From NCBI RefSeq assembly GCF_056746865.1, contig NZ_CM163382.1: a DNA stretch of 64,000 nt; one strand, given 5' to 3'. The notes below the pieces were generated by a model. That model saw only the letters and a list, made by a program, of their open reading frames with translations, was not told where the DNA came from and did no database searches. Positions 4,321 to 49,563 of the stretch are shown here, piece by piece. A program made the translations under genes and the position numbers. Position 1 is the first letter of the stretch, and every line of letters starts with the position of its first letter.

Positions 4321-4383
4321 ATCGCCTTCTTCGTTGCACTGTCTTATTATTAGGAATTGTGTATTTGACGAAGGGAAAATGGC

Positions 4384-5622: not shown

Positions 5623-5636
5623 GTGTTGGATATTTT

Positions 5637-5670
5637 GCCGGATGCGGCGTGAACGCCTTATCCGGCCTAC
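5637..5670. repeat. REP (repetitive extragenic palindromic) element
   Basis: gccggatgcggcgtgaacgccttatccggcctac between cca and uppP, the canonical enterobacterial REP sequence. Confidence 0.7.
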
Positions 5671-5712
5671 GCAATCGTTGACAATTCCACGCATCCGACA
5701 CTGTTCTTTACC

Positions 5713-6534: not shown

Positions 6535-6624
6535 CAATAAACCCCTAAATTATTAAAATGTACCGCTTGTCCGAACTACTGCAGTATGACCAGGTTTTAA
6601 CCGTTTGGTTTAACAGCTGTAAAA

Positions 6625-6993: not shown

Positions 6994-7097
6994 CACGTCC
7001 TGCCTGCTTTTTGGCTAACCGGATACCACTTCCGGCGAAATGTGCGTATTATCCACAGATTCATCGTTGAACACGAATTTTCAAAACGGAACAGCTT

Positions 7098-7715
7098 ATG
7101 AGTGCAATCGCGCCTGGAATGATCCTCATCGCGTACCTCTGCGGCTCCATTTCCAGTGCCATTCTGGTTTGCCGCTTGTGTGGGCTGCCCGATCCGCGAA
7201 CCAGCGGCTCCGGCAATCCAGGCGCAACCAATGTGTTACGTATCGGTGGCAAGGGAGCAGCCGTAGCAGTACTGATTTTCGACGTTCTGAAAGGAATGTT
7301 GCCTGTCTGGGGCGCGTATGAATTAGGTGTCAGCCCCTTCTGGCTAGGCTTAATTGCCATCGCCGCCTGCCTTGGACACATCTGGCCCGTTTTCTTCGGT
7401 TTTAAAGGAGGAAAAGGCGTTGCTACCGCTTTTGGTGCCATCGCACCAATTGGCTGGGATCTCACCGGAGTAATGGCGGGAACCTGGTTACTGACCGTGC
7501 TATTGAGCGGATACTCGTCGCTGGGAGCGATTGTCAGTGCACTGATTGCTCCGTTTTATGTCTGGTGGTTTAAGCCACAATTCACCTTCCCGGTTTCGAT
7601 GCTCTCTTGCCTGATCCTGCTGCGTCACCATGACAACATCCAGCGTCTGTGGCGTCGTCAGGAGACAAAAATCTGGACGAAATTCAAAAGAAAGCGCGAA
7701 AAGGATCCCGAGTGA
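7098..7715 (+). CDS. plsY: Glycerol-3-phosphate acyltransferase PlsY
   Basis: 205 aa membrane protein [24 protein letters not shown]... Confidence 0.9.
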
Positions 7716-7727
7716 TTTCTGGTGGAT

Positions 7728-8660
7728 CTACATAACCTGATAGCCTTCGTCGGGCTTGCCCAGCCGTTGCTGGCACCATGCCGCCAGAAATTCCACGCAG
7801 ACACGTAATTTCATGCTGCGATAGAGCGGCTCCCGGTAAACAGCCCAGATATTGGCGCTTTGTGCATACTCCGGCAATACTCGCACCAGTTTGCCACTCT
7901 CCAGAAACGGCAACACATCCCACTCGGAACGCAACATAATCCCTTTGCCCTCCAGCGCCCATTGCAACACTATCTCGCCGCTATTGGAGGAAAGATGCCC
8001 GCTTACCTTCACCGATTTTTTCTCCTGACCGTTCCCCAACTCCCATATTCCGTGGGTCATATCGCGCTCTTTGGTCACCAGACAATCATGACGACTTAAT
8101 TCCTGCAAGGATTGTGGCTGCGGATATTTTTGCAGATACTCAGGTGCAGCACATAATATTCGTTTATTTTTTGTCAAAAGATGCGCAATATAATAATCAG
8201 GAATTTCGTCATTAATACGAATATCCAGATCAATATTATCCTGCACTAAATCAATTTGCCGATCGAACAATTCAAAATGCACCTGTAACTCAGGATAATT
8301 GCGCATCAGTTCGGTAATAGCTGGCGCAATATGGCTGCGCCCAAAACCAAAACTACAGCCAATACGAATCATCCCCTCCGGGCGCGTTTTGATTTGCGTA
8401 ACGTCATCGACCAGTCGCTGATATTGGGTGAGGATTTCCAGCGCATGCTCGTAACAACGTTGGCCACTTTCAGTCAGCGCCACGCCGCGAGCGGAGCGGT
8501 TCAGCAGCGTTGTTGCCAGCGTATTTTCAAGGATTTGGATCCGCTTGGTGACAAATGCAGGCGTTTGCCCAAGCGTCGCCGCTGCGGCGCTAAAACTCCC
8601 GCTGTGGACGATTTCTACCAGTACCTGCAAATCTTTGGCTAAAGGCCAGCTATTCAGCAT
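7728..8660 (-). CDS. ttdR: LysR-family transcriptional activator of tartrate genes
   Basis: 310 aa with N-terminal HTH; divergent from ttdA. Confidence 0.88.
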
Positions 8661-8866
8661 CGTTAATTATCCGCAGTTGTGATAAGCGCAGTGTATTTCG
8701 CAAAACATTGCCATTCCCTGCTCTGGCGCAATATTCATTCTTATTTTCGCGTTGATTCACGAACTGTGAATTACATATTCACGGCGGCAAAAAATATAAA
8801 ACCACATTTTTAGTGGTAGTTTGTGGCGGTGAATTTTTCCAGACAAATACATAAACTGGAGTTGCC

Positions 8867-18002: not shown

Positions 18003-18078
18003 GGCCCCTTAGCTCAGTGGTTAGAGCAGGCGACTCATAATCGCTTGGTCGTTGGTTCAAACCCAACAGGGGCCACCA
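18003..18078 (+). tRNA. ileX: tRNA-Ile (anticodon CAU, ileX-like)
   Basis: 76 nt: 7-bp acceptor stem GGCCCCT/AGGGGCC, D-arm, anticodon loop CTCATAA, T-arm GTTGG-TTCAAAC-CCAAC, 3' CCA. Ile2 rather than Met assignment is from memory of ileX and from position after mug. Confidence 0.85.
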
Positions 18079-26076: not shown

Positions 26077-26293
26077 CAGCTTTTCCTTACAGAGGGTGAA
26101 TAAAAAAGCCGGTACCCACAAATGTGGATACCGGCAGGTACAAAACAGCATGGTCAGATAAAGTGGTTTTTCCCGGACATAAATGCTTCCCCTCTCTCAT
26201 CCGCCAGAGAAGTATCAGTCCGTTGTGTGCAATTCCGTTCTGCATGATGAAGAGATTCAACTGCCTTTTCGCAGGCCATTAACCACTATAAAC

Positions 26294-26329
26294 GATCGAT
26301 AGTAACGATCGATACCTGTTTTATTGATC
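26294..26329 (-). promoter_or_regulatory. agn43 phase-variation switch region (three Dam GATC sites, presumed OxyR operator)
   Basis: GATC at 26294-26297, 26307-26310 and 26326-26329 within 36 bp, about 220-250 bp upstream of the flu ATG. Confidence 0.65.
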
Positions 26330-26448
26330 GTTTTATTCTATTGATTGCAAGGCGGTCACGCAAGAGAAACAGGAGGATCATGAGGTGTTTGTGTCATGTT
26401 TTCAGTTGGTTAACGCAATGTAATCAGGCATTTCCCCTGGCAGACTGT

Positions 26449-30464: not shown

Positions 30465-33400
30465 ATGACTCATCAAACACACACCATTGCTGAATCCAAT
30501 AACTTTATCGTCCTTGATAAGTACATCAAAGCTGAGCAAACAAGCGACAGCTACCAGAGCGAATCGGACCTGGAACGTGAACTGATTCAGGACCTGCGGA
30601 ATCAGGGTTATGAATTTATTTCCGTAAAATCACAGTCGGCAATGCTGTCTAATGTTCGGGAACAGCTTCAGAGCCTCAATGGTGTGATGTTTAATGACAG
30701 CGAGTGGCGGCGCTTCACGGAGCAGTATCTGGACAACCCCAGCGATGGTATTCTGGATAAAACCCGTAAAATCCATATCGACTATATCTGCGACTTTATT
30801 TTTGACGACGGGCGACTTGAGAACATCTATTTGATAGATAAAAAGAATCTCATGCGCAATAAGGTGCAGATTATCCAGCAGTTTGAACAGACGGGTTCTC
30901 ATGCTAACCGTTATGACGTCACGATCCTGGTTAATGGTTTACCGCTGGTGCAAATCGAACTAAAAAAACGCGGGGTGGCGATTCGTGAGGCTTTCAACCA
31001 GATACATCGTTACAGTAAAGAGAGTTTTAACAGCGAAAATTCCCTGTTTAAGTATCTGCAACTGTTTGTCATTTCTAACGGCACCGATACCCGTTATTTT
31101 GCCAACACGACAAAGCGCGATAAAAACAGTTTTGACTTCACCATGAATTGGGCGAAATCAGACAACACGCTGATTAAAGACCTCAAAGACTTTACCGCTA
31201 CCTTTTTCCAGAAACATACTCTGCTGAATGTTCTGGTGAACTACAGCGTTTTTGACAGTAGTCAGACGCTACTGGTGATGCGACCGTACCAGATTGCCGC
31301 CACCGAGCGCATTCTGTGGAAAATTAAGAGTTCCTTTACAGCGAAGAACTGGTCAAAACCGGAAAGCGGTGGGTATATCTGGCACACTACCGGTTCTGGT
31401 AAAACCCTCACCAGCTTTAAAGCCGCGCGTCTGGCAACAGAGCTGGACTTTATTGATAAAGTCTTCTTTGTGGTCGACAGGAAAGACCTCGATTACCAGA
31501 CCATGAAGGAATATCAGCGTTTTTCGCCAGACAGCGTCAACGGCTCGGAAAATACCGCAGGCCTTAAACGAAATCTGGATAAGGACGATAACAAAATTAT
31601 CGTCACTACTATTCAGAAACTCAATAACCTGATGAAAGCAGAAAGCGACCTGCCTGTATATAATCAGCAAGTGGTGTTTATATTTGATGAATGCCACCGC
31701 AGCCAGTTTGGAGAAGCGCAGAAAAACCTGAAGAAGAAATTCAAACGCTATTATCAGTTTGGTTTTACCGGCACCCCTATTTTCCCGGAAAACGCCTTAG
31801 GCTCAGAAACAACCGCCAGCGTATTTGGCCGTGAATTGCATTCGTATGTGATTACCGATGCGATTCGTGACGAAAAAGTGCTCAAATTCAAGGTGGACTA
31901 CAACGATGTGCGGCCACAGTTTAAGTCTTTAGAGACAGAAACTGACGAGAAAAAACTGAGTGCGGCTGAAAATCAGCAGGCGTTTCTTCACCCCATGCGT
32001 ATTCAGGAAATCACGCAATATATCCTGAATAATTTCCGCCAGAAAACCCACCGTACTTTCCCTGGTTCCAAAGGTTTTAATGCCATGCTGGCAGTAAGCA
32101 GCGTGGATGCTGCAAAAGCCTATTATGCGACGTTTAAACGGTTACAAGAGGAAGCCGCTAATAAATCTGTAACTTATAAACCGCTGCGTGTTGCGACAAT
32201 CTTCTCCTTTGCCGCTAATGAAGAACAAAATGCCATTGGTGAAATTTCCGATGAAACTTTTGATACCAGCGCAATGGACAGCAGTGCTAAAGAGTTTCTT
32301 GACGCTGCAATTCGTGAGTATAACAGCTATTTTAAAACTAACTTCAGCACCGACGGTAACGGTTTTCAGAACTACTATCGTGATTTAGCCCAACGGGTTA
32401 AAAATCAGGATATCGATCTGTTAATTGTCGTGGGAATGTTTTTAACCGGCTTCGATGCTCCAACATTAAACACGCTATTCGTCGATAAAAACTTGCGTTT
32501 TCACGGCCTGATGCAGGCATTCTCCCGCACCAACCGCATTTATGACGCGACTAAAACCTTCGGTAATATTGTCACGTTCCGGGATCTGGAACGCTCAACC
32601 ATTGATGCCATAACGCTGTTTGGTGATAAAAATACCAAAAATGTGGTTTTAGAAAAGAGTTATGCAGAGTATATGGAAGGCTTTACTGATGCTGCCACTG
32701 GTGAAGCTAAACGCGGCTTCATGACAGTAGTTTCAGAACTGGAACAACGGTTCCCTGACCCTACCAGTATTGAAAGTGAAAAAGAGAAGAAAGACTTCGT
32801 TAAACTGTTTGGCGAATACCTGCGTGCCGAGAATATCCTGCAAAACTATGATGAATTTGCCACGCTAAAAGCCCTGCAACAAATCGATCTTAGCGATCCT
32901 GTTGCGGTAGAAAAATTCAAAGCAGAACATTATGTGGATGATGAAAAGTTCGCTGAATTGCAAACAATTCGTCTCCCTGCTGATCGCAAGATTCAGGATT
33001 ATCGTTCTGCCTATAACGATATTCGCGACTGGCAGCGCCGTGAGAAAGAAGCTGAGAAAAAAGAGAAATCAACCACTGACTGGGATGACGTAGTTTTTGA
33101 GGTCGATTTGCTGAAGTCTCAGGAAATAAACCTGGATTATATCCTTGGACTGATTTTCGAACACAACAGACAAAATAAAGGCAAGGGCGAAATGATCGAA
33201 GAGGTCAAACGCTTAATTCGTTCAAGCCTGGGGAACCGTGCTAAAGAGGGCCTGGTGGTCGATTTTATTCAGCAAACGAACCTGGATGATTTACCGGACA
33301 AAGCCAGCATCATTGACGCATTCTTTACGTTTGCTCAACGCGAACAGCAACGTGAAGCAGAAGCCTTGATCAAAGAAGAAAATCTCAATGAAGAGGCGGC

Positions 33401-33581
33401 GAAACGCTATATTCGCACATCTTTAAAACGCGAATACGCCACCGAAAATGGCACGGAATTAAACGAGACACTGCCCAGACTCAGTCCTTTAAATCCGCAA
33501 TATAAAACGAAAAAACAGACTGTTTTTCAAAAAATTAGCGCATTTATTGAAAAATTTAAGGGGGTGGGTGGAAAGATTTAG
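30465..33581 (+). CDS. hsdR: Type I R-M restriction endonuclease/helicase subunit
   Basis: 1038 aa; helicase motif I (TGSGKT) and DEAD-like box ([12 protein letters not shown]); length and sequence recall EcoR124I HsdR. Confidence 0.92.
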
Positions 33582-33731
33582 GGAAGGTGCGAATAAGCAG
33601 GTCATTTCTTCCCAAGCTGACTCGCTGATTAAAATTTCGCGGATCTGGGCCGATTTTTTTCCCGCAAACACATCGAATCGGCCTGTTTAGGCTATTTTTT
33701 CCACCATTTCTGGCGTTATTTCCGGTTTTTA

Positions 33732-36015
<2,284 letters not shown>

Positions 36016-36184
36016 TCAGGAACTTGTTCGCACCTTCCCTAAAAAAAGCAGATGATTTTCATTATTATCGCAGGATAATTGTGCGCATATTTTCCATGCG
36101 GATAAGAATACTTATTCATGGAAATAATAATTTCCAGGTCATCAAGTGAAATCTGTTAACGCAAAGAGTGTTCCACCCTGCCCC

Positions 36185-36715
36185 TCACACCATCTCAAGT
36201 TTTACCGCGTCATAACCACACTGAACCAAACATTCACCGCAACCATTACATATTGCAGCATCGATTACAGGCATTCCGCTTTCGTTGATTGAGCATGCCT
36301 GAAGTGGGCATAGATCGACACACTGTTTGCAACTGCGCACCGGATTAACACAATTTGCTTTAAAAACGGGACGCAATCCGGTGTCGAAACGAGCCTGCGG
36401 ACGTAATGCCTCAGTGGAACATGCAGCTATACATAAGCCGCAGCCGTCACAACTGGCAAATTCAATCACCAATTGCGGATAGCCATCTTCATGCCGGTTG
36501 AGAATGCCCATGGGACAGGCATTAATACACAAATCACACTGCGTGCACTGCACACGAAACTGCGCATCAGGTAACGCGCCGGGAGGTAAGGAGTGCACAG
36601 GTAATATCGGTGTTGTTACCGGGCGTGCCGCGCTGACAAAGGCCCGAAATAGCCCACGTCGGCTAACATACCGATGAGACATTAACTCCTGATAATAATT
36701 TTCTGACTTACTCAT
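36185..36715 (-). CDS. Ferredoxin-type protein with multiple 4Fe-4S motifs (NapF-like)
   Basis: Several CxxCxxCxxxCP motifs; start taken at MSKSENYYQ... whose ATG overlaps the upstream chaperone stop (ATGA). Confidence 0.65.
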   Translation of the reverse strand: MSKSENYYQELMSHRYVSRRGLFRAFVSAARPVTTPILPVHSLPPGALPDAQFRVQCTQCDLCINACPMGILNRHEDGYPQLVIEFASCDGCGLCIAACSTEALRPQARFDTGLRPVFKANCVNPVRSCKQCVDLCPLQACSINESGMPVIDAAICNGCGECLVQCGYDAVKLEMV

Positions 36716-37308
36716 CCAAGAAAGAGCCGTTTGGTTGGAGGATTTAGTGCCTGTTGCTGCTGATAATCCTGCAGAAACAGTGTCGCAATCTGCGCCAACT
36801 TCGCGTAAAACGCACTGACAGGGTTGCGCTGTAATAACTCCAGATAACGATATCCCCACGGCAGCAAATGCGTTTCCAGCAATTGATTCGCTGCGCGTTC
36901 TTTCCCCTCTGCCAGCAAGGCGCTACAGGCAAGCAGCATCAGGCCAAACTGATCTTCCGGTTCATTTATACAGGAATCAAACGTCATTCCCTGATCACGA
37001 AGGAACTTCCGGTACTCGGCAGTGCTGTCCCCCATCAACAGATTATCTTTTTCGAGATATACCGAACCCCAGGGTGGTGCTGGCATTTCACCCTGTCCTT
37101 CAAAAAGAACAGAAAATTGCCAGAGATGCTGCTCCTCATCCGGGATTGACCAGTCAGAGCATAATTCAGCCACCTGGCGGGGATCGCGCCAGGGGTATAT
37201 CTCATCCAATGTCGGCAGACAGTCAAACAGTGCCCGAACTTCAGGACGCGTGGGAGAATAGTAAAACAGGGCACCAAGAATACGCACCAGTACGGCTGGG
37301 GAAGGCAT
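36712..37308 (-). CDS. TorD/DmsD-family redox enzyme maturation chaperone
   Basis: About 199 aa from MPSPAVLVRILGALFYY...; position after the membrane anchor as in dms/ynf operons. Confidence 0.6.
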   Translation of the reverse strand: MPSPAVLVRILGALFYYSPTRPEVRALFDCLPTLDEIYPWRDPRQVAELCSDWSIPDEEQHLWQFSVLFEGQGEMPAPPWGSVYLEKDNLLMGDSTAEYRKFLRDQGMTFDSCINEPEDQFGLMLLACSALLAEGKERAANQLLETHLLPWGYRYLELLQRNPVSAFYAKLAQIATLFLQDYQQQQALNPPTKRLFLG

Positions 37309-37362
37309 GATTAAACACTCCTGAAAGCAGAGGTGGCCGGGCAAACACCGGCCACTCACAGG

Positions 37363-38139
37363 TTACATAGGGATGGTCCAGAGGTTGTAGAAACCGATCC
37401 GACCAACCAGTTCAGCAGCAATAACCACCAGTGCAGTCATCGCCAGCACAGCTTGCCCACTTTTCATGCGTGCATAGAGCAGTGCCCCAATAACACCCAG
37501 CGCCAACAGAATGGCCTGAGCGGTAAACCAGGTGGACTGCGCAGCGGTAATAACGCCATCAGCACTCATTAGCGTGGAAATATAACCCGGACGCAAACAG
37601 AAACTCGCCAGAATCGCCAGTACACTTACCAGCAGCCCCAGACGACGAACGCCAAACAACGCCGCCAACATGCCGCCACCGATAAGTGCAGTTAGCACCA
37701 TCATCATGGTGGTGTAAGAGGTACTCCAGGTCGCTACCGTTGCCAACTGGTAAATACGCGGGATGGCAAAGATAAACACGACTCCAATCGCAGCGGCCAG
37801 CCATACCAGTACTTTACAAAGCATTGCACCACCGCGATTTAACAGCAAACCGAGAGATCCCAGTCCTCCGGCTGCGGCAAAACATGCCGAAAGCACGATT
37901 TCGTTACTCATAGGAGAACTGCCGACACGGAATAGCATATTCAGCGCTCGCAGCGGCTGCCCGACATGAATGGTGCCAAGCACAACACCCACACCAAACA
38001 AGCACATCACCGAAAAGAGACCAATCGCCATACGACGTGGCTCAATTAATCCCATGGCACCGCCAATCAGCAGCAGAATAAACGCCCCCACTGCGCTCTG
38101 GGTAAATACGGTGAAAAAGACCAGTGGTAACTCATGCAT
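37363..38139 (-). CDS. DmsC-like membrane anchor subunit
   Basis: 258 aa, eight predicted hydrophobic segments; overlaps the B-subunit stop by 8 nt. Confidence 0.75.
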   Translation of the reverse strand: MHELPLVFFTVFTQSAVGAFILLLIGGAMGLIEPRRMAIGLFSVMCLFGVGVVLGTIHVGQPLRALNMLFRVGSSPMSNEIVLSACFAAAGGLGSLGLLLNRGGAMLCKVLVWLAAAIGVVFIFAIPRIYQLATVATWSTSYTTMMMVLTALIGGGMLAALFGVRRLGLLVSVLAILASFCLRPGYISTLMSADGVITAAQSTWFTAQAILLALGVIGALLYARMKSGQAVLAMTALVVIAAELVGRIGFYNLWTIPM

Positions 38140-38758
38140 GGCGCACCTCCCGAATGTTCATGATCGCCCCTTCTTTGTCGCCCGTAGGTCGCGCCAGCGG
38201 ATGCGGTTTAATTATCAGGTTAGGATGCGTAAACGAAGCGGCAGGTAACGGTGCGATTTCATTTTCACTGCCATATTTCGCCCGCAATTCGTCGATAGGA
38301 CCAAAATCCAAAGCTCGCTGTGGACAGGACTCAACACAAATAGGCGGGAGATTTTTCTCCAGTCGGTCAAGGCAACCATCACACTTACGCATCACTTTAG
38401 CTTGTGTATCAAACTGCGGTGCACCATAAGGGCAGCGCATTTCGCAGTAACGACAGCCCACACAAACACTGTCATCCACCAGCACCAGGCCATCTTCTTC
38501 GCGTTTGTGCATCGCGCCGGTTGGGCAACCTGCCACACAGGTCGGTTCATCGCAGTGATTGCAGGCAATCGACAAATAGTAAGTGAAGGTATTGTTGTGC
38601 CAGCTTTCACCTTCTTTCACCCAGCTACCGCCACCATATTCATACACGCGGCGCAGCTTCGGTCCGACATCCAAATCTTTATTATCCTTGCAGCTTACCT
38701 GGCAGGTTTTGCAGCCAGAGCAACGCGAGGAGTCAACGTAAAAACCATACTGTTTCAT
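38132..38758 (-). CDS. DmsB-like 4Fe-4S electron-transfer subunit
   Basis: 208 aa with four Cys-cluster motifs (CSGCKTCQVSC, CNHCDEPTCVAGCP, CVGCRYCEMRCP, CDGC...C). Confidence 0.85.
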   Translation of the reverse strand: MKQYGFYVDSSRCSGCKTCQVSCKDNKDLDVGPKLRRVYEYGGGSWVKEGESWHNNTFTYYLSIACNHCDEPTCVAGCPTGAMHKREEDGLVLVDDSVCVGCRYCEMRCPYGAPQFDTQAKVMRKCDGCLDRLEKNLPPICVESCPQRALDFGPIDELRAKYGSENEIAPLPAASFTHPNLIIKPHPLARPTGDKEGAIMNIREVRHA

Positions 38759-38771
38759 TGCGGATCACTCC

Positions 38772-41207
38772 CTAAGCGCGTTTGATTTCAACCAGGTTGG
38801 TATGTTGCGGGTTCCCTTTCGCCAGCGGCGACGGCAGGTGGCTGGTCAATGTGTTAATACATCCACCCACGTCCACACCGTTGCTGTCCAGTCGGGTCCA
38901 CGCGCCTTGCGGCATTGCCACCACGCCCGGCAGGATGCGCTGTGTCACCTTGCAGGGGATCTCCACCACACCGCGATCGTTGAATACATGGACCATATCG
39001 CCTGATTTCAACTGACGCACGCTGGCGTCTATCGGGTTGATCCAGACTTCATCCGGTACCGCTTCATGCAGCATCAGCACACTGGCATATGTTGAGTGCG
39101 TGTGACCTTTGGTGTGAAAACCGCTCATCTGTAGCGGATACTTTGCTGTCAGACTCTTGTTCAGATGGGACTCTGTCACTATACAAAATTCAGGAACAGC
39201 CGGAATGCGATCTCCTTCCGGTAGTGTCCAGGCTTTAGCCAGTTCCGCCAGAGTGTGCGAGTAAATCTCAATCTTCCCGGAAGGTGTCGTCAGTGGACTG
39301 GCAACCGGATCATGGCGGAAATCAGCAAGGATAATACTGTCCTCATCACGAGTACCTTGCTGATCGATAACCCCCATATTCATTGCAACTTCCCATTCAG
39401 GCAGATATGATCGCTTCTCTTTAACTTGTCCGTAATGCTTCGCCATCCACTCTGCCTGAGTACGCCCCTCAGTAAAACGCTCTCTTACCCCAAGATGCCC
39501 CGCAATATCTGCACAGATATCATAGGTACTGCGTACTTCCCACATCGGTGTGATCGTTTTTTGCATTGCAATCATGTAATGGTGAGAACCGGCTGCATAG
39601 GAACTGTCCACCAGATCCTCGGCTTCTAAGTAGCTAGTTTCTGGAAGAAGGATATCGGCAAAGCGGGCACTGGCAGTCATATGATTATCAATAACCACGA
39701 TAGTTTCGCACAGGCTGTCATCTTCAAGTATTTTGCGTGTACGATTGATATTTCCATGTTGATTCAGAAGTGCATTCCCGGCCTGGTTGAAGAACAGTTT
39801 AATACCGGTTTTCAGTTTATCCGCGCCTTTAACCCCCATAGTGGTGGCTGTCATTTTTTCCGGACTTTGAATCGCATCTGTCCACAGATAGCAGGGGATT
39901 GACACCTTAACGGGATTTTCACCAATCGGCAGAGCAGGAACACCATAAGGTGTTCCGTATGTCCAGTTCCCATTGTTGGTTCCTGGCAATCCAAAATGAC
40001 CCGTCAGGGCAGGAAGTATCTGAACCGCTCTGGAAGTCTGTTCACCATTTGCATGACGCTGTGGCCCCCATCCCTGGGCAATGAAACAGGCCCGAGCTTC
40101 GGCCATTTCACGTGCCAACTGGCGAATACGAATAGCCGGGATGCCACAGATATCTGCCGCCCATTCAGGTGTTTTTTCGACGCCGTCATCACCGTTACCC
40201 AGAACATAGTCTTTATAACTGGCATTTGGTTTCGCCGTTTCCGGAAGGGTGCTACGATCATAACCGACACAATAAGTATTGACTCGTTCTTCGTCGATCA
40301 GATTTTCTTTTATCAACGTGTGTGCAATAGCTGCTACCAGTGCAGCATCGGTTGTAGGGCGAATTGGTAACCATTCAGCATGTTCTGTAACAACAGAGTC
40401 TGTATAGCGCGGATCGATGATAATCACCCGGGCGCCTGATATTTCCAGCGCACGGCGCAGTTCTTCAACTTGCCCACCACCGGACATCCGAGTCTCAGAT
40501 AAATTCAGACCAAAAAAAACCACAAGATCAGAATGCGCAATCTGGCTAAAATGACTGGCAAACTGTACTCCTGTAGCACCATACGTGTAAGATGTGGCGG
40601 TAAAGTTTTGAGCGTTTGAGTAATTATTGTAATACTGCAGAAAACCGCCATTCAGGTTCAATAACCTTTTCCATGCGGGTGTTCCTTGGTTATGATAATA
40701 CGCGCCAGATTGATAATTAAAATAGATTGCTTCATTTCCATATTTTTCAGAAACGCGCTTTAATTCAGCGGCAATAAAGGCTGTGGCCTCATCCCATGAA
40801 ATACGTTTAAATTTCCCTTCTCCGCGTTTACCAACACGTTTCATCGGATATTTAATCCGGTCAGGGCTATAAACACGCCAGCGGCTGGAACGACCACGTA
40901 GGCAAGGTCGAATCTGATGTTCACCAAAAACAGAGTCGTCCTTCGCGTCCTCGGCTTCAATACGAACAATGCGTCCGTCTTTTACGATAACTTTTAATGG
41001 ACAACGACTTCCGCAATTCACCAGGCAAGCACTATGCCTGACGGTTTCAGCATTTTCGTTGGTTTTACCGGTATCCGATGTTTCGGCCCTGACGGTTGTG
41101 GAAAAAGGCAAAGTGATGGCGTTGCTTAGTGCAACGGCAGCTCCCAATTTTGCAGTTGTAGTCACCGCATCACGTCGGGAGATTGTTGTATTTAACAACT
41201 CTTTCAT
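38772..41207 (-). CDS. DMSO reductase-family molybdopterin oxidoreductase catalytic subunit (DmsA/YnfE-like)
   Basis: 811 aa; twin-arginine signal (TISRRDAVTT), N-terminal Cys cluster (HSACLVNCGSRCP), molybdopterin domains. Confidence 0.85.
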   Translation of the reverse strand: MKELLNTTISRRDAVTTTAKLGAAVALSNAITLPFSTTVRAETSDTGKTNENAETVRHSACLVNCGSRCPLKVIVKDGRIVRIEAEDAKDDSVFGEHQIRPCLRGRSSRWRVYSPDRIKYPMKRVGKRGEGKFKRISWDEATAFIAAELKRVSEKYGNEAIYFNYQSGAYYHNQGTPAWKRLLNLNGGFLQYYNNYSNAQNFTATSYTYGATGVQFASHFSQIAHSDLVVFFGLNLSETRMSGGGQVEELRRALEISGARVIIIDPRYTDSVVTEHAEWLPIRPTTDAALVAAIAHTLIKENLIDEERVNTYCVGYDRSTLPETAKPNASYKDYVLGNGDDGVEKTPEWAADICGIPAIRIRQLAREMAEARACFIAQGWGPQRHANGEQTSRAVQILPALTGHFGLPGTNNGNWTYGTPYGVPALPIGENPVKVSIPCYLWTDAIQSPEKMTATTMGVKGADKLKTGIKLFFNQAGNALLNQHGNINRTRKILEDDSLCETIVVIDNHMTASARFADILLPETSYLEAEDLVDSSYAAGSHHYMIAMQKTITPMWEVRSTYDICADIAGHLGVRERFTEGRTQAEWMAKHYGQVKEKRSYLPEWEVAMNMGVIDQQGTRDEDSIILADFRHDPVASPLTTPSGKIEIYSHTLAELAKAWTLPEGDRIPAVPEFCIVTESHLNKSLTAKYPLQMSGFHTKGHTHSTYASVLMLHEAVPDEVWINPIDASVRQLKSGDMVHVFNDRGVVEIPCKVTQRILPGVVAMPQGAWTRLDSNGVDVGGCINTLTSHLPSPLAKGNPQHTNLVEIKRA

Positions 41208-41287
41208 TTTATTTTCTCACATTGTTTTCATAATTATTATTAATACGACATATGAGGTAATCATAAAGAATTAGTAATTCATCATGA

Positions 41288-41301
41288 TTGATTATGATCA
41301 A
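41288..41301. promoter_or_regulatory. FNR-box (TTGAT-N4-ATCAA) upstream of the molybdoenzyme operon
   Basis: ttgattatgatcaa is a perfect match to the FNR consensus, centred about 87 bp upstream of the ATG at 41207; a second FNR/CRP-like site gtgatcattatcaa lies at 41337-41350. Confidence 0.5.
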
Positions 41302-41413
41302 GTGAGATTTGGTGCTTAGCACAAATATAAATATTTGTGATCATTATCAAAATGTAAATGATAACGCATCTTTATTATCATTTGAGATTAAATATCACGC
41401 AGCGTTAATCTAA

Positions 41414-43870
<2,457 letters not shown>

Positions 43871-44465
43871 CAAGAGAACGCAACAGCGCACTTGCTTTGC
43901 CACAGTTGAATTTTGTGCCGTAACGATGTGCAAGCATGTAAGCATAAGGAGTCAAGGTATAGCGTGTTACTTAGTTACTCGGATTAACAATCCCAACGTA
44001 CAGAGCGGCGGATTTAGAGAGTCAGCGCAGTCCCTGCTCCGGCAGTCAGTGGCAGGCGGCGTACTGAAGCAAACCATTATCGATACCGGCATCGGCGATA
44101 CCATCGGCATGCTGATGTCACACGGCAATATTTCTCCCTACATCATGGCGTGGTTGATAACCGTGCTGATCCGTCTGGCAACGGGTCAGGGCGTGGTCTC
44201 AGCCATGACGGCGGCGGGGATTATTAGCGCAGCAATCCTCGACCCGGCAACCGGTCAACTGGTGGGCGTCGACCCGGCGTTGCTGGTGCTGGCAACAGCG
44301 GCTGGCTCCAACACGCTGACCCATATCAACGATGCTTCGTTCTGGCTGTTCAAAGGCTACTTTGATCTGTCGGTGAAGGATACGCTGAAAACCTGGGGTC
44401 TGCTGGAGCTGGTAAACTCCGTGGTTGGCCTGATAATCGTGTTGATCATCAGCATGATTGCATAA
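43871..44465 (+). pseudogene. GntP-family permease, C-terminal fragment truncated by IS5
   Basis: The 303-aa track ORF starts inside IS5; only the distal ~198 codons look like a gluconate-type permease C-terminus. Confidence 0.6.
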
Positions 44466-44514: not shown

Positions 44515-45210
44515 TCAACAATCCTCAATAATCAGATATACCGCCTTCACCGGACCATGCACCCCAACCACCTTGATAAGCTCAATATCCGCCGTCGAGC
44601 TGGGTCCACTGATGATATTAATGCACGATGGCATACGCTCACCGGCCTGTGCTTTCTGATGCAGTTTTTCTGCCAGCTGCGCCACGCGCGGCAGGATGGT
44701 GCTTTTACGCAGCACGAAAATAGAGGACTCCGGCAACAGGCTCAGGGAGCGCCCGCGCTCCGGTGCGGAAAACAGCACCACGCCGCCGGACTCGGTCAGG
44801 CCATATTCGGCATACACCACGCCGACTTTCGCCTGCTCGGCCTGGGTAATATTTTCGCTACCACGCGCCGGATCCCAGACCACGGCGTTGCATTCCTGCT
44901 GCAAGCGTTCGGTGATGCCCAGCTCCACCAGCCGGCTGTCGCCGCTCAGCACCACCGGCTGCTGACCCAATTCTTCGCACAGGCGCAGTGCCGCGTCTGC
45001 GGCCTGGTCCTCGCTGGTCAGTTCGCAGCGGGCCAGCATCACTTCGCTGGCAAACTGGATAAACGCAGAGCAGCGCTGCTCGGGGCTAAGCTCGGTCAGG
45101 CGCTCGTTGGCATAGTTGTTAACCGGTGCGGCATCCGCTTGCGGTTCGAAGCGCAGCGGGCGACCCAGCGCCTGGGCGATGGTGTTTAAAAACGCGGTAC
45201 GGTTATCCAT
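44515..45210 (-). CDS. ykgG: Lactate utilization protein C (LutC/YkgG family)
   Basis: 231 aa from MDNRTAFLNTIAQALG...; start overlaps ykgF stop. Confidence 0.85.
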   Translation of the reverse strand: MDNRTAFLNTIAQALGRPLRFEPQADAAPVNNYANERLTELSPEQRCSAFIQFASEVMLARCELTSEDQAADAALRLCEELGQQPVVLSGDSRLVELGITERLQQECNAVVWDPARGSENITQAEQAKVGVVYAEYGLTESGGVVLFSAPERGRSLSLLPESSIFVLRKSTILPRVAQLAEKLHQKAQAGERMPSCINIISGPSSTADIELIKVVGVHGPVKAVYLIIEDC

Positions 45211-46630
45211 TCTTTTTCTCCTGCGCCTGATGTTTCTTAAACCAGCTGCGGAAGCTCTCGCCGTCAGCATCAGGCAGATCGCGCGCCTCCATCCAGTCAC
45301 CAATCGCGCCAACCTTGAGCGGGGTTTTGCCGCCATTGATAAACCAGCTCGCCGCATGCGCGCCCGCCATCATCCCGACTTTCCACAGCCCCGGATGGCT
45401 ATTGGCATAGGCGAACATCTTGATCGCCCGTCGCTCGGCTTTCGGCGTAATGCCCTCCTCGGCCATCACCCGGCGATGACGCAGGATCAGTTTTGACAAC
45501 GGAATACGCACCGGGCAGACGCTGTCACAAGCCGTGCACAAAGAACAGGCGTACGGCAGGTCTTTAAAATCTTTATAGCCGCCGAGCAGCGGAGAAATCA
45601 CCGCGCCGATAGGGCCGGGATAGATAGAGCCATAGCCGTGCCCGCCGATGTGGCGGTACGCCGGACAGGTGTTCATACAGGCTCCGCAGCGGATGCAGCG
45701 CAGCACATCGCGAAACTCTGAGCCCAGCACCTGCGAGCGACCGTTATCGACAATCACCAGATGGAACTCTTCCGGTCCGTCAACGTTGTCCGCATCACGC
45801 GGGCCGGTCAGCCAGGTGTTGTAGCCCGTCAGACGTGCGCCCACGGCGCTGCGCGCCAGCATGGTAATCAGCACATCCACCTCGGCAAAGGTCGGCGCGA
45901 TACGCTCCATGCCCATCACCGCAATGTGCGTTTTCGGTAGCGTGGTGCACATGCGCGCGTTGCCTTCGTTGGTCACCAGACACACCGAGCCGGTTTCCGC
46001 CACGGCAAAGTTACAGCCAGTAATACCGATTTCGGCACTGAGGAAATCCTCGCGGATCTTCTGACGAATGAACAAGGTCATAGCTTCCGGGGTTTCCGGG
46101 CCGTCGTACCCCAGACGTTCGTTCAGCACGCGGCGGATCTGGTAGCGATCTTTATGAATCGCCGGAACCACGACGTGCGAAGGCGGATCCTGATCCAACT
46201 GCAGGATATATTCCCCGAGATCGGTTTCGATCACCTGGATTCCGGCATCCTGCAACACATGGTTGACGCCGATTTCTTCGGTCACCATCGACTTGGACTT
46301 CACCACCTTCTGCGCATTTTTACTCTGCGCGACCTGCAAAATGTAGCGAGTGGCATCTTCTTTGGTTTTGGCGAAATAGACGTGTCCGCCGTTTTCCGTC
46401 ACTTTCTCGGAGAGTTGGTACAGGTAAGCGTCGAGGTTGCTCAGAACGTGATCGCGGATCTGGCTGGCACGATCGCGCCATTCTTCCCAGTGGCCTAACT
46501 CATCGACCATTTTTTGCCGATTCGCGCCGATACGCTCCTGCGCATTAGCCACGGCTTTGCGCATAATCGGATCTTCTATCTGCTGACGAATACGCAGTTT
46601 AAATTCTACATCGCTGGTTTTTATCGACAT
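45203..46630 (-). CDS. ykgF: Lactate utilization protein B, iron-sulfur (LutB/YkgF family)
   Basis: 475 aa; two 4Fe-4S motifs (CIRCGACMNTCP, CSLCTACDSVCP). Confidence 0.9.
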   Translation of the reverse strand: MSIKTSDVEFKLRIRQQIEDPIMRKAVANAQERIGANRQKMVDELGHWEEWRDRASQIRDHVLSNLDAYLYQLSEKVTENGGHVYFAKTKEDATRYILQVAQSKNAQKVVKSKSMVTEEIGVNHVLQDAGIQVIETDLGEYILQLDQDPPSHVVVPAIHKDRYQIRRVLNERLGYDGPETPEAMTLFIRQKIREDFLSAEIGITGCNFAVAETGSVCLVTNEGNARMCTTLPKTHIAVMGMERIAPTFAEVDVLITMLARSAVGARLTGYNTWLTGPRDADNVDGPEEFHLVIVDNGRSQVLGSEFRDVLRCIRCGACMNTCPAYRHIGGHGYGSIYPGPIGAVISPLLGGYKDFKDLPYACSLCTACDSVCPVRIPLSKLILRHRRVMAEEGITPKAERRAIKMFAYANSHPGLWKVGMMAGAHAASWFINGGKTPLKVGAIGDWMEARDLPDADGESFRSWFKKHQAQEKKNG

Positions 46631-46640
46631 CTCTTTCCCC

Positions 46641-47360
46641 TCAGCGGCTCATCAGCACTTCAGCAATATGCATCACTTTGACCGGCTGGCCTTCCCGTTG
46701 CAGTCGACCGCCAATGTTCAGCAGGCAGCTAACGTCTGCGCCAATCAAAAATTCCGGCTTTGCGTCCATCAGATGTAATACTTTCTCTTTCACCATCTCA
46801 CCGGATATCTCGGCCATCTTGACCGAGAACGTCCCGCCAAAGCCGCAACAGGTATCCTGATCGGCAAACGTCAACAGCTCCAGTCCGCGCACGTTTTTCA
46901 GCAGCGTAAGCGGCTCTTCCTTCACTCCCAGTTTGCGGGTCAGGCTACAGGAAGGATGATACACAGCGCGGCCCTGCAGGCTGGCACCAACGTCCACCAC
47001 ACCCAGTTTGTTGACGATAAAGGAGGTGAGATCCTGCATACGCGCGGAAACTTTCTCAGCACGCAGCGCCCATTCCGGTTCATCGGCCAGATACGTCGGG
47101 TAGCTTTTAACCGCGTAGGTGCAGGAGCCCGCCGGGGAGATAATCGGATCGTCGTTGTCTTCCAGCGCGGCGATCAGGTTTTTCATCCCGGGGATCGCCT
47201 CTTTGATGTAACCGCTGTTGATGGCTGGCTGACCGCAACACCCTTGCTTCTCGGGGAAATTAACGCGACAACCCAGTTTTTCCAGCAGCAATACGGAGTC
47301 TCGTGCCATCCGTGATTTCAGTGCGTCACCAATACAGGTGACAAAGAAATTTACATTCAC
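46641..47360 (-). CDS. ykgE: Lactate utilization protein A (LutA/YkgE family, CCG domain)
   Basis: 239 aa; cysteine-rich CCG motifs. Confidence 0.9.
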   Translation of the reverse strand: MNVNFFVTCIGDALKSRMARDSVLLLEKLGCRVNFPEKQGCCGQPAINSGYIKEAIPGMKNLIAALEDNDDPIISPAGSCTYAVKSYPTYLADEPEWALRAEKVSARMQDLTSFIVNKLGVVDVGASLQGRAVYHPSCSLTRKLGVKEEPLTLLKNVRGLELLTFADQDTCCGFGGTFSVKMAEISGEMVKEKVLHLMDAKPEFLIGADVSCLLNIGGRLQREGQPVKVMHIAEVLMSR

Positions 47361-47434
47361 AATAACTACTCCATTGCTTCATTTCTGTTTATTGCGCTTG
47401 ATATCGCGATATCAAACAAATGTTCATTCGTATT

Positions 47435-49132
47435 TCATGCCCAGTTTTTATGTTTGCTGGTTTTACCAATACCTGGATTCATAGTGTTGGTCGGATCATT
47501 TTCCTGATAAAAACGTGCCAAATTTTCCGGCGCTTTATACAGATGGCCGACATTGTGTTCCGCCGGATATTGCGCTCCGCGTTGGCGCAGTAATTCCAGC
47601 ATCTGTTCTTTTAACGCGTGGGCATCTACGCCTTTTTTAACGATATAATCCTGATGGAATACATGGCACATAAAATGGCCGTAATAGAGTTTATGCACCA
47701 ACTGACTGTCAATTTCCGCAGGTAAATACTCATACCATTCGGTATCATTGCGGCGTAATGCAATATCCAGCGCGAGAATATCCTCAACCTCGTCAGAATG
47801 AACGGCCTGATAACGAATGGCAGCACCCGCGGCGGCAAAACGATGCAGAAACGCCTTACTGCCCTCTTCCGCGGTACAGGTAAAGAACGCGCCCTCGGCC
47901 GATTTAAAATAGTCCGTTAACCATGCCTGGGCTTCGGCCACACCCTCGCCGGACATTTTCAACATCAGATGGTGTTCATAGTTATCGCGCCAGGTCTTCA
48001 TCCGCGCCGGGAGATGGCTCGGGAACAGATGGCTAAAAGCCTGCATCGCGCGGTCAGTAAAGTGCGGGCGAAAGATCTTCACCTTCTCAAGTATGGCCTC
48101 GGTACGCCCCTTCAGGTTGAAGAAGAACGGCATTTTGTCCGTGCCAAGTTTGTCGATCATCAGGAAGGTATCTTTGCTGTATTTCTCTGCAATATCATAG
48201 ATATCGCGGTGCATATACTCCCCAGCAACCGGCAGGTTTGTAAAATTCGCCAGGATGTGGCGGCGAATCTCAGTCAGGACATCAGTCTGATTGGTACCGA
48301 TATAAAAGACCTGCTGGTTCTTCTCGGCTTCAAAGGTATCCAGACGTACGGCAAACACCGCTAACTTGCCCGCGCAGCCAGAGGATTCAAACAGGCGATC
48401 CGGGTCAGCGTTGTAACGTGCTGGCGTGTCGGCATTGATGTCCCGCACGCGGCTAACATAGTCGTGATCGTGCGCGTGACGTCCGTCATGGTTGACGAGC
48501 GCGGCTTCAATCACATTGTTATCCAGCCGGGCAAGGATTTGCTCTGGCGTCTGACCTAGCTCAATGCCAAGGTGATTGACCAGCTGCAAGCGTCCCTGTT
48601 CATCAATGCGGGCAAACAGCGACATCTCGGTGTAAGCCGGGCCTCGCTGGACCAGAGAACCGCCCGAGTTATTACAGATACCGCCGATAACCGACGCGCC
48701 GATGCACGAAGAGCCGATCACCGAATGCGGCTCACGGCCAAACGGCTTCAGCGCCCTTTCCAGCGAGTACAGCGTGGTGCCCGGATAAGCCAGCACCTGC
48801 TTGCCCTCATCCAGCACATGCAGACTGTCCAGCCGCAGCGTGCTGATAATGACGATCTCGCGGTCGTAGTCATTACCATTTGGCGTCGAACCCTCGGCCA
48901 GGCCTGTGTTCGACGCCTGCATCAGGATTATTTTATCAGCCTCAACGCAGGCGCTGAGGACTTTCCAGAGTTCAAGCAAAGAGCCGGGGATAACCACCGC
49001 CAGAGCATCACCCTGACCCGAGCGGAATCCCTTACGGTAACGCGCAGTTTTTGACGGTTCGGTGAGGATATGAGCAGGGCCAACCAATTGGGTAAGAGTC
49101 GTCAAAAAGGTCTTATTATCAGTATGTTTCAT
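47435..49132 (-). CDS. FAD-dependent quinone-linked D-lactate dehydrogenase (Dld-like)
   Basis: 565 aa; FAD-binding region (IGSSCIGASVIGGICNNSGGS); collinear with remembered E. coli Dld. Confidence 0.85.
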   Translation of the reverse strand: MKHTDNKTFLTTLTQLVGPAHILTEPSKTARYRKGFRSGQGDALAVVIPGSLLELWKVLSACVEADKIILMQASNTGLAEGSTPNGNDYDREIVIISTLRLDSLHVLDEGKQVLAYPGTTLYSLERALKPFGREPHSVIGSSCIGASVIGGICNNSGGSLVQRGPAYTEMSLFARIDEQGRLQLVNHLGIELGQTPEQILARLDNNVIEAALVNHDGRHAHDHDYVSRVRDINADTPARYNADPDRLFESSGCAGKLAVFAVRLDTFEAEKNQQVFYIGTNQTDVLTEIRRHILANFTNLPVAGEYMHRDIYDIAEKYSKDTFLMIDKLGTDKMPFFFNLKGRTEAILEKVKIFRPHFTDRAMQAFSHLFPSHLPARMKTWRDNYEHHLMLKMSGEGVAEAQAWLTDYFKSAEGAFFTCTAEEGSKAFLHRFAAAGAAIRYQAVHSDEVEDILALDIALRRNDTEWYEYLPAEIDSQLVHKLYYGHFMCHVFHQDYIVKKGVDAHALKEQMLELLRQRGAQYPAEHNVGHLYKAPENLARFYQENDPTNTMNPGIGKTSKHKNWA

Positions 49133-49563
49133 GGAGGGCGGCTCTCCGCTCCTTATATCAGGGCCAGTGAAAATGGCTATAAGTTCATTTGTATGACAAA
49201 GCAGAATATTCCCTCAATCAATATCCACATGCAATACCCCATTTTATTTCTTTCGGTACCGCTCACATTTTTTAATGAAATTACCACCGCCATATAATTC
49301 ATACCTCGCCCTTTGAGGGGATGCCAAAACACTTATTTATTGCAAAGATCATCCCATACCTATTAATGATTAACTCTAATGGGTGTTGTAATATTTAGTG
49401 GTTATTCATATTTAATAAAAAAAATAACATTATTTATACAATTATTAACCTTTATAACTTTATTTCACTGAAGCGATTCAGTTAGCATTTTTTATTTTAT
49501 TATTCAGGTAGCTTCCTTCCCCATAAATATAGCTCAGTCTAAAAAAGTAAATCGGGAATTGTA

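Follow-up and report, generated by a model that had tools for sequence, protein, structure and literature searches.

Within the window, the whole stretch of 64,000 nucleotides that was analysed, a segment of 5375 bp (36039..41413, minus strand) is enclosed by two insertion sequence (IS) copies, bears CTAA at either end and comprises a promoter followed by five genes. All five open reading frames are intact and lie on the minus strand between 36185 and 41207. The first, A (38772..41207, 811 aa), encodes the catalytic subunit, a Tat-exported bis-MGD molybdoenzyme, and is followed by B (38132..38758, 208 aa), a four-cluster [4Fe-4S] electron-transfer subunit, and by C (37363..38139, 258 aa), predicted to be a DmsC-type membrane anchor and menaquinol-oxidising subunit, with an overlap of 8 nt between the B and C reading frames. 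Two accessory genes complete the set: D (36712..37308, 198 aa), a Tat-proofreading chaperone of the DmsD/TorD family, and F, a NapF/DmsE-like poly-[4Fe-4S] protein whose coordinates are 36185..36715 (176 aa) or 36185..36682 (165 aa). The start ATG of the 176-aa form overlaps the D stop codon (ATGA), and F spans 531 nt in the record of phage RCS47; PGAP starts the gene at the ATG at 36682.

Genes and promoter of the captured segment

Profile scores and alignments bear out all five gene assignments made in an earlier note on this DNA. The catalytic subunit covers the NCBIfam model TIGR02166 (dmsA_ynfE) from end to end (positions 1-794 of 794) at 1131.7 bits, the cut-off being 777.7. It stays below the cut-offs of the exception models NF011566, NF041885 and NF041884 for DmsA, YnfE and YnfF (897.7/1600, 929.8/1675 and 867/1650), and its only NCBIfam assignment is to the joint 'DMSO/selenate family' subfamily. 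It carries a twin-arginine leader (ISRRDAV...VRA/E), the FS0 motif C-x3-C-x3-C...C (CLVNCGSRC...C) and a YS(N)AQ motif with the Mo-ligand serine, YSNAQ, that aligns with YSSAQ of DmsA; we take the DmsA serine to be Ser176, known as a Mo ligand from mutagenesis.

The electron-transfer subunit scores 277.8 bits with TIGR02951 (DMSO_dmsB, cut-off 214.1), the anchor matches Pfam PF04976 (DmsC) at 7e-34 over model positions 5-275 of 275, and D passes NF008632 (DmsD) marginally, with 164 bits for a cut-off of 162. The F protein has an SRRGLF motif at its N-terminus, four Cys clusters and Pfam matches to Fer4_7/9/10. It covers the napF model TIGR00402 over its full length with 95.7 bits, just under the cut-off of 102.2, yet its SRRG motif and all its Cys clusters align with those of K-12 NapF (28% identity, full length), and for these reasons we call it NapF-like. 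Across all genes of the module, dN/dS values of 0.03-0.13 indicate purifying selection.

The perfect FNR site that the earlier note had seen upstream of the operon is indeed present at 41288..41301 (TTGATTATGATCAA, or TTGATCATAATCAA read on the coding strand), its centre lying 87 bp 5' of the A ATG. It is the sole TTGAT-N4-ATCAA in the 64-kb window, for which the chance expectation is 0.07, and at least one such site was present in 7 of 100 shuffles. A putative -10 hexamer read from the sequence, TATGAT (41260..41265, minus strand), would set the transcription start of A at about 41253 and the FNR box 41.5 bp 5' of it; a spacing of about -41.5 is that of a class II FNR promoter. A second, putative FNR-like site with one mismatch, TTGATAATGATCAC (41337..41350), lies 49 bp 5' of the first, at about -90.5, and is also found in the version of the operon on P1-like plasmids such as pL37-2 that we call allele 2. 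The perfect box is kept at -87/-88 in allele 2 and 5' of Salmonella STM4305, where it is equally far from the start codon and followed by the same TATGAT.

Upstream of K-12 dmsA, whose promoter is FNR-activated, there is an FNR site with one mismatch, and within 440 bp upstream of the Intestinirhabdus alba A gene no FNR box was found with up to two mismatches. Generic scans for sigma-70 promoters and terminators showed no excess of matches and did not pick up the putative FNR promoter; a class II promoter without a -35 element would be expected to escape them. Candidate NarL and ModE sites, sought by eye, were too weak to count as features. In the gap between C and D, a match to the terminator-like scan coincides with a GC-rich hairpin (37333..37355, minus strand; -21.2 kcal/mol, z = -2.1), the number of terminator-like matches around it being not above chance. 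This hairpin could act as a partial terminator, or as a processing or stability element that splits ABC from DF; in Haemophilus influenzae, dmsABC and dmsDE are two transcription units (PMC8340005).

Relatives of the operon and the chimeric catalytic gene

The K-12 enzymes DmsABC and YnfEFGH have the same subunit architecture as the module. They share with A the Tat leader, the FS0 motif and the serine Mo ligand, and likewise have a four-cluster B and a DmsC-type C, whereas the module holds its chaperone within the operon and adds the NapF-like gene. A is 50, 49 and 49% identical to DmsA, YnfE and YnfF, B about 61 and 60% to DmsB and YnfG, C 37 and 40% to DmsC and YnfH, and D 36% to DmsD. The phylogeny that the earlier note had proposed for the catalytic subunit sets it apart: in a neighbour-joining tree DmsA, YnfE and YnfF cluster together (50/50 bootstraps) to the exclusion of A.

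At the active site, A has the loop QSGAYYHNQ--GTPAW in place of GTGTLGGTMTRSWPPGNT in DmsA, which makes it about 5-6 residues shorter than in K-12 and Tyr-rich, and the motif that follows from the Mo-ligand serine is YSNAQNF. The serine ligand and YS-x-AQ are common to all aligned members. A search of the PDB returned no DmsABC-type heterotrimer, and our reading of the active site is therefore drawn from alignment to soluble DorA/TorA-type enzymes and from general knowledge.

Closer relatives are found in other genera. Salmonella enterica STM4305-STM4308 comprises the orthologues of A, B, C and D in the same order, with 81, 92, 80 and 73% identity, so that about 19% of residues differ between the two catalytic subunits. 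These are the first genes of 'genomic island 4305', adjoining dcuSR and pheU, an island viewed as horizontally acquired (PMC1360685). The Salmonella operon is fixed in the chromosome, whereas the module is IS-flanked and borne by phage-plasmids, and a tblastn search downstream of STM4308 found neither a NapF-like fifth gene nor a remnant of one. Intestinirhabdus alba displays the same five-gene synteny, its fifth gene being 68% identical to F.

The H. influenzae operon dmsABCDE has the same five-gene layout (catalytic, Fe-S, anchor, DmsD, DmsE) and is likened to the module by layout; its DmsA is presumably closer to E. coli DmsA than A is. It is chromosomal and without IS brackets, whereas the module is IS-bracketed. 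Its induction is anaerobic and FNR-linked, and its DmsE is a NapF homologue (PMC8340005). The fifth gene that the earlier note singled out as an extra ferredoxin is truly there, but is not unusual for such an operon.

Identity profiles and an informative-site scan revealed a recombinant tract in A (38761..40863, minus strand), extending from about codon 116 to 11 nt past the stop codon. Over this tract the sequence matches, at 100% identity, a divergent operon of the type found on metagenome contig L013 and in E. coli EC2641; outside it, the module is identical to allele 2 of the P1-like plasmids. The scan counted 541 consecutive sites of the L013 type, with flanks of the allele 2 type at 207/210 and 135/135 sites. 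From these alignments, A codons ~116-811 are seen to be swapped in from a divergent orthologue, a detail that is new.

At least two deeply divergent alleles of A (84% amino-acid identity) thus occur in an otherwise identical module. The swapped core, which has YSNAQNF beside the Mo ligand, is of the I. alba/L013 lineage, and the closest named chromosomal relatives of A are those of I. alba (85%) and Salmonella (81%). A cluster representative with 96% identity lies on a metagenome contig, and this contig is IS-associated too. No donor species emerged among the relatives compared.

Insertion sequences and the spread of the module

The IS flanks recognised in the earlier note proved to be direct repeats of 2464 bp (33576-36039 and 41408-43871, 99.6% identical by self-BLAST), each made of an ISKpn26 (IS5 family) that is split by ISEc31, an IS3-family element with orfA/orfB and a frameshift. 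The boundaries read from the sequence set the left, downstream copy of ISKpn26 at 33582..36038 and the right, upstream copy at 41414..43870, both on the minus strand and in direct orientation. ISEc31, seen as a gap against intact ISKpn26, occupies 34516..35773 (minus strand) in the left copy, and an identical insertion occupies 42348-43605 in the right one. The ISKpn26 halves overlap by 3 bp at this site when aligned to the intact element, and the terminal repeats of the left ISKpn26 are GGAAGGTGCGAATAAG and CTTGTTCGCACCTTCC. The left IS is collinear with the intact ISKpn26 of RCS47. PGAP names for these IS are found in W2-5, PEC148 and pEF7-18-51_1, and in W2-5 the insertion of ISEc31 into ISKpn26 is also annotated. 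Rfam isrC matches fall inside both IS copies.

Queried with 36100-41400, RCS47 (Escherichia phage, Punavirus, P1-like; FO818745 / NC_042128) matches at 100% identity along the entire stretch, as do plasmids and chromosomes of E. coli. The RCS47 record annotates dmsA, dmsB, dmsC, a TorD-family chaperone and a ferredoxin, and shares the inner ISKpn26 junctions of the window. Its ISKpn26 copies are without ISEc31 and the upstream one carries IS1, whereas ISEc31 is present in both copies of the window. In RCS47 the unit framed by ISKpn26 interrupts imcA and is flanked by a 4-bp duplication, CTAT, which marks it as a true composite transposon, and in pEF7-18-51_1 the unit lies in imcA with the same duplication. 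In contrast, the unit of the window is chromosomal and shows no target-site duplication around the whole: the 4-mers flanking the left ISKpn26 are TTAG (outer) and CTAA (inner), those flanking the right one CTAA (inner) and CAAG (outer). Of the hallmarks of a composite transposon, the window thus has the paired IS; the target duplication is seen in RCS47 and pEF7-18-51_1.

Isogenic 'empty' sites with one ISKpn26 exist, and PEC148 is such a site, with a single ISKpn26 between the same outer flanks, TTAG and CAAG, as in the window. This identity of flanks argues for an arrival by IS homology, and the module of the window was probably received by recombination with a resident ISKpn26. The 5.4-kb segment is read as the cargo of an ISKpn26 composite transposon that inserted in imcA of RCS47-type P1-like phage-plasmids; in the window it entered a chromosomal island at ileX, adjoining hsdR, most likely via homologous recombination with an ISKpn26 already in place.

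Among 5426 complete E. coli genomes, 73 (1.3%) contain the module, which is found on chromosomes and on plasmids and in most cases on P1-like phage-plasmids. Together with the empty sites and the composite unit of RCS47, this distribution lends strong support to the horizontal acquisition proposed in the earlier note. The AT-richness invoked there is marginal for the locus as a whole (GC of 50.1% in the operon and 48.8% in the segment, against 52.6% in the window) and holds clearly only for A (48.6%) and the promoter region.

Searches of the full-text literature found nothing relevant linking DMSO reductase with ISKpn26, P1-like phage-plasmids or RCS47; the original RCS47 paper (AAC 2014), which was outside this search, is said to describe a DMSO-reductase operon as acquired DNA. 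In a survey of P1-like phage-plasmids the module is unmentioned. The deposit of the RCS47 genome had already made identical DNA public, so the locus adds little as a discovery; the module is a well-documented accessory element and not a novel type of system.

Proposed function and significance

We read the locus, with a probability of about 80%, as encoding an accessory paralogue of the DmsABC menaquinol:S-/N-oxide oxidoreductases that is horizontally mobile, belongs to the STM4305-4308 lineage, spreads as set out above and works as follows. In the absence of oxygen, FNR occupying its site at about -41.5 would switch on the class II promoter. The A precursor would gain its FS0 [4Fe-4S] cluster and bis-MGD in the cytoplasm, where D, the operon's own DmsD-type chaperone, would hold it by its twin-arginine leader and F would, by analogy with NapF and NapA, assist its maturation. 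The A-B dimer would then be exported by Tat and dock on C. Menaquinol would be oxidised by C, and the electrons would travel along the four clusters in B until they reach the Mo centre, which would reduce an S- or N-oxide, DMSO being the only substrate with support from an orthologue.

This support comes from Salmonella STM4305-4308; nowhere else in the lineage are there functional data. A triple dmsA mutant regains anaerobic growth on DMSO when STM4305 is supplied, deletion of STM4305 alone has no DMSO phenotype, and the gene is unable to substitute for the main DmsA in Salmonella (bioRxiv 10.1101/2022.11.29.517730). The silent deletion and the failure to replace the main DmsA suggest that DMSO may not be the physiological substrate. 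The substrate, which the earlier note gave as unknown, is therefore not entirely so, as an 81%-identical enzyme supports growth on DMSO.

Three other explanations deserve to be weighed. Gene order and protein families would suit a core dmsABC or ynfEFGH-dmsD locus that had been displaced or duplicated, but the near-identity to dmsABC or ynfEFGH by which the earlier note expected to recognise such a copy was not observed. Identities to K-12 reach only 36-61%, the scores of A (898/930/867 bits) fall far under the exception cut-offs (1600/1675/1650), the tree assigns A to a separate lineage, and the NapF-like gene occurs in neither core locus; such an origin has practically no chance of being right and was rejected on the low identity values. 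An improbable view is that, like YnfEFGH, the enzyme reduces an oxyanion, be it selenate, tellurate or chlorate, or serves another acceptor that is not an S- or N-oxide, with DMSO turnover in Salmonella as a side activity. It draws on the equal similarity of A to YnfE/YnfF (49%) and DmsA (50%), on its placement only in the joint 'DMSO/selenate family', on an active-site loop unlike that of DmsA and on the absence of a DMSO phenotype in the STM4305 single deletion. However, the only experiment in the lineage concerns DMSO-dependent growth, all members keep the serine Mo ligand and YS-x-AQ, and the DmsA+YnfE+YnfF clade (50/50 bootstraps) leaves A out, which speaks against a specific affinity to selenate reductases.

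It could also be argued that in E. coli the operon is silent or in decay, carried along between IS copies and on phage-plasmids and adding nothing to respiration. The rarity of the module, the IS activity all around it, the truncation of some copies (H44-H46; EC2641) and the several S-/N-oxide reductases that E. coli already owns (PMC12096835) are in keeping with this. Five intact frames that are 100% identical across many unrelated replicons, the low dN/dS, a promoter and FNR box kept between IS and gene, and a recombination in the catalytic core that left the frame intact all point the other way, and we give decay very little credence. The accessory S-/N-oxide reductase of the STM4305-4308 lineage remains our preferred reading.

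Overall, the finding is known and ordinary: the module is an intact predicted DMSO-type reductase operon in an E. coli genomic island, and its enzyme class, regulation and maturation logic are all textbook. Of modest interest is the vehicle, a whole anaerobic respiratory complex being the cargo of an IS5-family composite transposon that passes on P1-like phage-plasmids to chromosomal islands. More speculatively, and with odds clearly against it, the module may be an IS-mobilised respiratory cassette of phage-plasmids whose core is exchangeable by recombination, A codons ~116-811 being swapped against a fixed background of leader, FS0 domain, B, C, D and F, and which is maybe specific for a gut- or diet-derived S-/N-oxide other than DMSO. 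If this were true, lysogeny by P1-like phages would change how E. coli can respire and help it to colonise, for instance, poultry. The allele pair of A also represents a natural domain swap, usable for mapping the determinants of substrate specificity in DmsA-type enzymes.

Gene content and relatives of the operon

Five closely spaced ORFs, all intact, occupy 36185-41207 on the minus strand, and the identities proposed for them in the earlier note proved sound. The catalytic subunit A (38772-41207, 811 aa) matches NCBIfam TIGR02166, a model titled 'DMSO/selenate family reductase complex A subunit', with 1131.7 bits against a cut-off of 777.7. The 4Fe-4S subunit B (38132-38758) matches TIGR02951 (DMSO_dmsB, 277.8 bits, cut-off 214.1), the membrane anchor C (37363-38139) gave no NCBIfam match and is recognized by Pfam DmsC (7e-34), and the chaperone D (36712-37308) narrowly passes the DmsD model (164 vs 162). 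The NapF-like ferredoxin F holds several 4Fe-4S dicluster domains and covers the full napF model TIGR00402, with a score slightly under the cut-off (95.7 vs 102.2). Its alignment with K-12 NapF covers the full length of both proteins (28% identity) and matches the N-terminal SRRG and every Cys cluster. Its start is set at 36682 by the RefSeq annotation (PGAP) and most likely lies at 36715, where the start codon and the D stop overlap as ATGA, in agreement with the annotation of Escherichia phage RCS47. All genes are under strong purifying selection (dN/dS 0.03-0.13).

The possibility that this operon is a displaced near-copy of the core dmsABC or ynfEFGH loci is refuted by the subunit identities to K-12, which range from 36 to 61%: A shares 50% with DmsA and 49% with each of YnfE and YnfF, B 61% with DmsB and 60% with YnfG, C 37% with DmsC and 40% with YnfH, and D 36% with DmsD. 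It is also refuted by the scores of A, far under the NCBIfam exception cut-offs defining true DmsA, YnfE and YnfF, and by the catalytic-subunit phylogeny that the earlier note had proposed. In this TorA-rooted neighbour-joining tree of 32 sequences, STM2530 and the Haemophilus influenzae DmsA not among them, K-12 DmsA, YnfE and YnfF form a separate clade (50/50 bootstraps) and A clusters with Salmonella, Intestinirhabdus, Trabulsiella, Citrobacter, Providencia and Pectobacterium sequences.

The Salmonella protein, 81% identical to A, is encoded next to dcuS, dcuR, dcuB and fumB, upstream of srgE and rtsAB-type genes. This locus is the STM4305-4308 operon (gene table in PMC1360685), whose products are 81, 92, 80 and 73% identical to A, B, C and D; neither a fifth gene nor a remnant of one was found there. 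Intestinirhabdus alba has the same five-gene synteny, with 85% identity for A and 68% for the NapF-like gene. In H. influenzae, the operon is dmsABCDE, and DmsE, which is homologous to NapF, has been described as a maturation chaperone (PMC8340005). The 'extra ferredoxin' thus conforms to a layout that is already known and not unusual.

An IS-bounded mobile module

The IS flanks reported for the operon are 2464-bp direct repeats of 99.6% identity, each consisting, according to the annotation of RefSeq relatives, of an ISKpn26 (IS5 family) broken by an ISEc31 (IS3 family). With termini read from the sequence, the left copy spans 33582-36038 and the right copy 41414-43870, enclosing a captured segment (36039-41413) with CTAA at each end. 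The AT-richness attributed to the locus is marginal, GC being 50.1% in the operon, 48.8% in the captured segment and 52.6% in the window.

The horizontal acquisition proposed in the earlier note is well supported. A module match occurs in 73 of 5426 complete E. coli genomes (26 chromosomal, 47 plasmid), 36 complete E. coli genomes being 100% identical over 36100-41400, and the full module is carried by 61 PLSDB plasmids, including Salmonella plasmids, and by the P1-like Punavirus RCS47. The inspected carrier plasmids are P1-like phage-plasmids with c1, coi, a cre-type integrase, ref and phd/doc. In RCS47 (280-8830) and PLSDB plasmids, the module sits within imcA, between lox/cre and c1. The inner junctions of ISKpn26-dms-ISKpn26 in RCS47 and plasmid pEF7-18-51_1 match those of the window, and there the unit interrupts imcA, with 4 bp (CTAT) duplicated on its two sides, which makes it a bona fide composite transposon. 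The imcA-ISKpn26 junction is found in at least 117 PLSDB plasmids vs 61 with the full module; many plasmids therefore lost the module by recombination between IS copies or never carried one.

In the window, the outer IS flanks (TTAG and CAAG) display no target duplication. E. coli PEC148 is collinear with the window to the left and right of this site and carries just one ISKpn26 there, located between its hsdR and truncated gntP-family genes and bordered by the very same TTAG and CAAG. In the simplest history, an ISKpn26-dms unit would have recombined with a resident ISKpn26 at the hsdR site.

The ISEc31 inserts (34516-35773 and 42348-43605) are mutually identical and interrupt the two ISKpn26 copies at one and the same position; in strain W2-5 only the upstream ISKpn26 is interrupted by ISEc31 and in RCS47 neither is, a pattern that suggests gene conversion or recombination between IS copies. 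Rfam 'isrC' matches (35583-35705, 43415-43537) fall within the ISEc31 elements. On inspection of the genome and PLSDB match lists, poultry turns up often among carriers of the window allele. The surrounding genomic island (about 18100-53000) adjoins rpoD, mug and a CAT-anticodon tRNA (18003-18078; tRNA-Ile in the W2-5 annotation). It carries CP4-like toxin-antitoxin, antirestriction, Ag43 adhesin and GTPase genes and a type I restriction-modification system, hsdMSR (hsdR 30465-33581). Directly right of the IS, the gntP-family permease gene cut by ISKpn26 precedes a lactate-utilisation cluster (44515-51117: lutC, lutB, lutA, dld, LctP-family permease). A group II intron follows at 52026-53639 (Rfam Intron_gpII, 64.9 bits), with a reverse transcriptase/maturase ORF (TIGR04416, 336.6 bits). 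Rfam matches to IS102 RNA (26095-26331, 74 bits) and to ALIL, a frameshift pseudoknot of the IS3 family (54639-54755, 111.7 bits), mark further IS-related sequence. The stretch 55104-63995 holds a fragment of an IS256-family transposase and, after it, a cluster for sugar utilisation (LamB-like porin, fructokinase, GH32 sucrose-6-phosphate-hydrolase-family enzyme, oligosaccharide MFS transporter, glycosidase) that resembles the fos (fructo-oligosaccharide) locus described in avian E. coli.

A recombinant catalytic gene

Many P1-like plasmids carry a second, '89.7%' allele (allele 2), whose divergence is uneven along the module. Identity to the window is 98-100% over the promoter, codons 1 to ~115 of A and the genes B, C, D and F, and drops to only 65-82% over 38800-40800, the two A proteins being 84% identical. 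A divergent orthologous operon on a metagenome contig (L013) displays the reverse pattern, with 100% identity to the window over 38700-40800 and 64-83% elsewhere. A scan of informative sites located the two switches at 40863/40869 and 38744/38761; the 541 informative sites lying between them are L013-type without interruption. The recombinant tract (38761-40863, codons ~116-811) matches the operon type of L013 and E. coli EC2641 at 100% identity. Most parsimoniously, the window/RCS47 allele would derive from an allele-2 module whose catalytic core was replaced by an L013-type core in one event. L013-type operons are themselves mobile; on the EC2641 chromosome (L015, 4146-14404), a third version of the operon has been truncated by IS903B, which also flanks it. 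Its neighbours code for a C-S lyase of the PatB/MalY type, a transporter of aromatic amino acids and an AsnC regulator, a trio also present on Klebsiella plasmids (94% identity), and a link to sulfur-amino-acid or sulfoxide metabolism is possible.

Regulation and probable function

The perfect FNR site reported upstream is indeed present: TTGATTATGATCAA, at 41288-41301, is the sole TTGAT-N4-ATCAA in the 64-kb window (0.07 expected by chance), its centre lying 87 bp upstream of the A ATG on the coding strand. From a candidate -10 hexamer, TATGAT (41265-41260), transcription would start near 41253 and place the box at -41.5, the classical class II geometry. Salmonella STM4305 and allele 2 have a perfect FNR box at -87/-88 from the start codon and a -10 identical to that of the window, and the promoter is probably FNR-dependent. 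The perfect box is preceded, at a distance of 49 bp, by a second FNR-like site with one mismatch, TTGATAATGATCAC (41337-41350, about -90.5), which is found in allele 2 too; tandem FNR sites can modulate activation. In the C-D gap, a GC-rich hairpin (37333-37355, -21.2 kcal/mol, z = -2.1) may separate expression of ABC from that of DF, as in H. influenzae, where dmsABC and dmsDE are two transcription units (PMC8340005).

Subunit A has a conserved twin-arginine leader (ISRRDAV ... VRA/E) and FS0 motif (CLVNCGSRC...C). Its YS-x-AQ serine is conserved as well and aligns with DmsA Ser176, the Mo ligand known from DmsA mutagenesis. Across the whole STM4305-like clade, the DmsA loop GTGTLGGTMTRSWPPGNT is replaced by a shorter, Tyr-rich QSGAYYH(N/T)Q--G(T/S)PAW, in a region that corresponds to Rhodobacter DorA Tyr114/Trp116 and DmsA T148/R149. 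The PDB yielded no structure of a DmsABC-type complex.

We favour, with a probability of about 0.8, an FNR-induced, Tat-exported, menaquinol-dependent DmsABC-type S-/N-oxide reductase with its own DmsD-type chaperone and NapF/DmsE-type Fe-S maturation factor. FNR would induce the operon, A would be exported by the Tat system and menaquinol would feed S-/N-oxide reduction, D and F presumably assisting as chaperone and maturation factor. In Salmonella, STM4305 supplied in trans restored DMSO-dependent anaerobic growth to a triple dmsA-homologue mutant, and its single deletion had no phenotype (bioRxiv 10.1101/2022.11.29.517730). In view of this weak DMSO phenotype and the altered loop, the physiological substrate may not be DMSO; specificity for an oxyanion or another acceptor is unlikely. 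That the module is a silent passenger is less probable still, with five intact genes under purifying selection.

This kind of system is already known, as indicated by the Salmonella genetics, the H. influenzae layout and the public RCS47 record, in which the identical DNA, bracketed by two insH genes, is annotated as dmsA, dmsB, dmsC, a chaperone of the TorD family and a ferredoxin; the 2014 RCS47 paper reportedly described the region as acquired DNA. The present analysis adds the imcA target duplication, the recombinant nature of the catalytic core and a probable route, by IS homology, into the ileX island of the chromosome.
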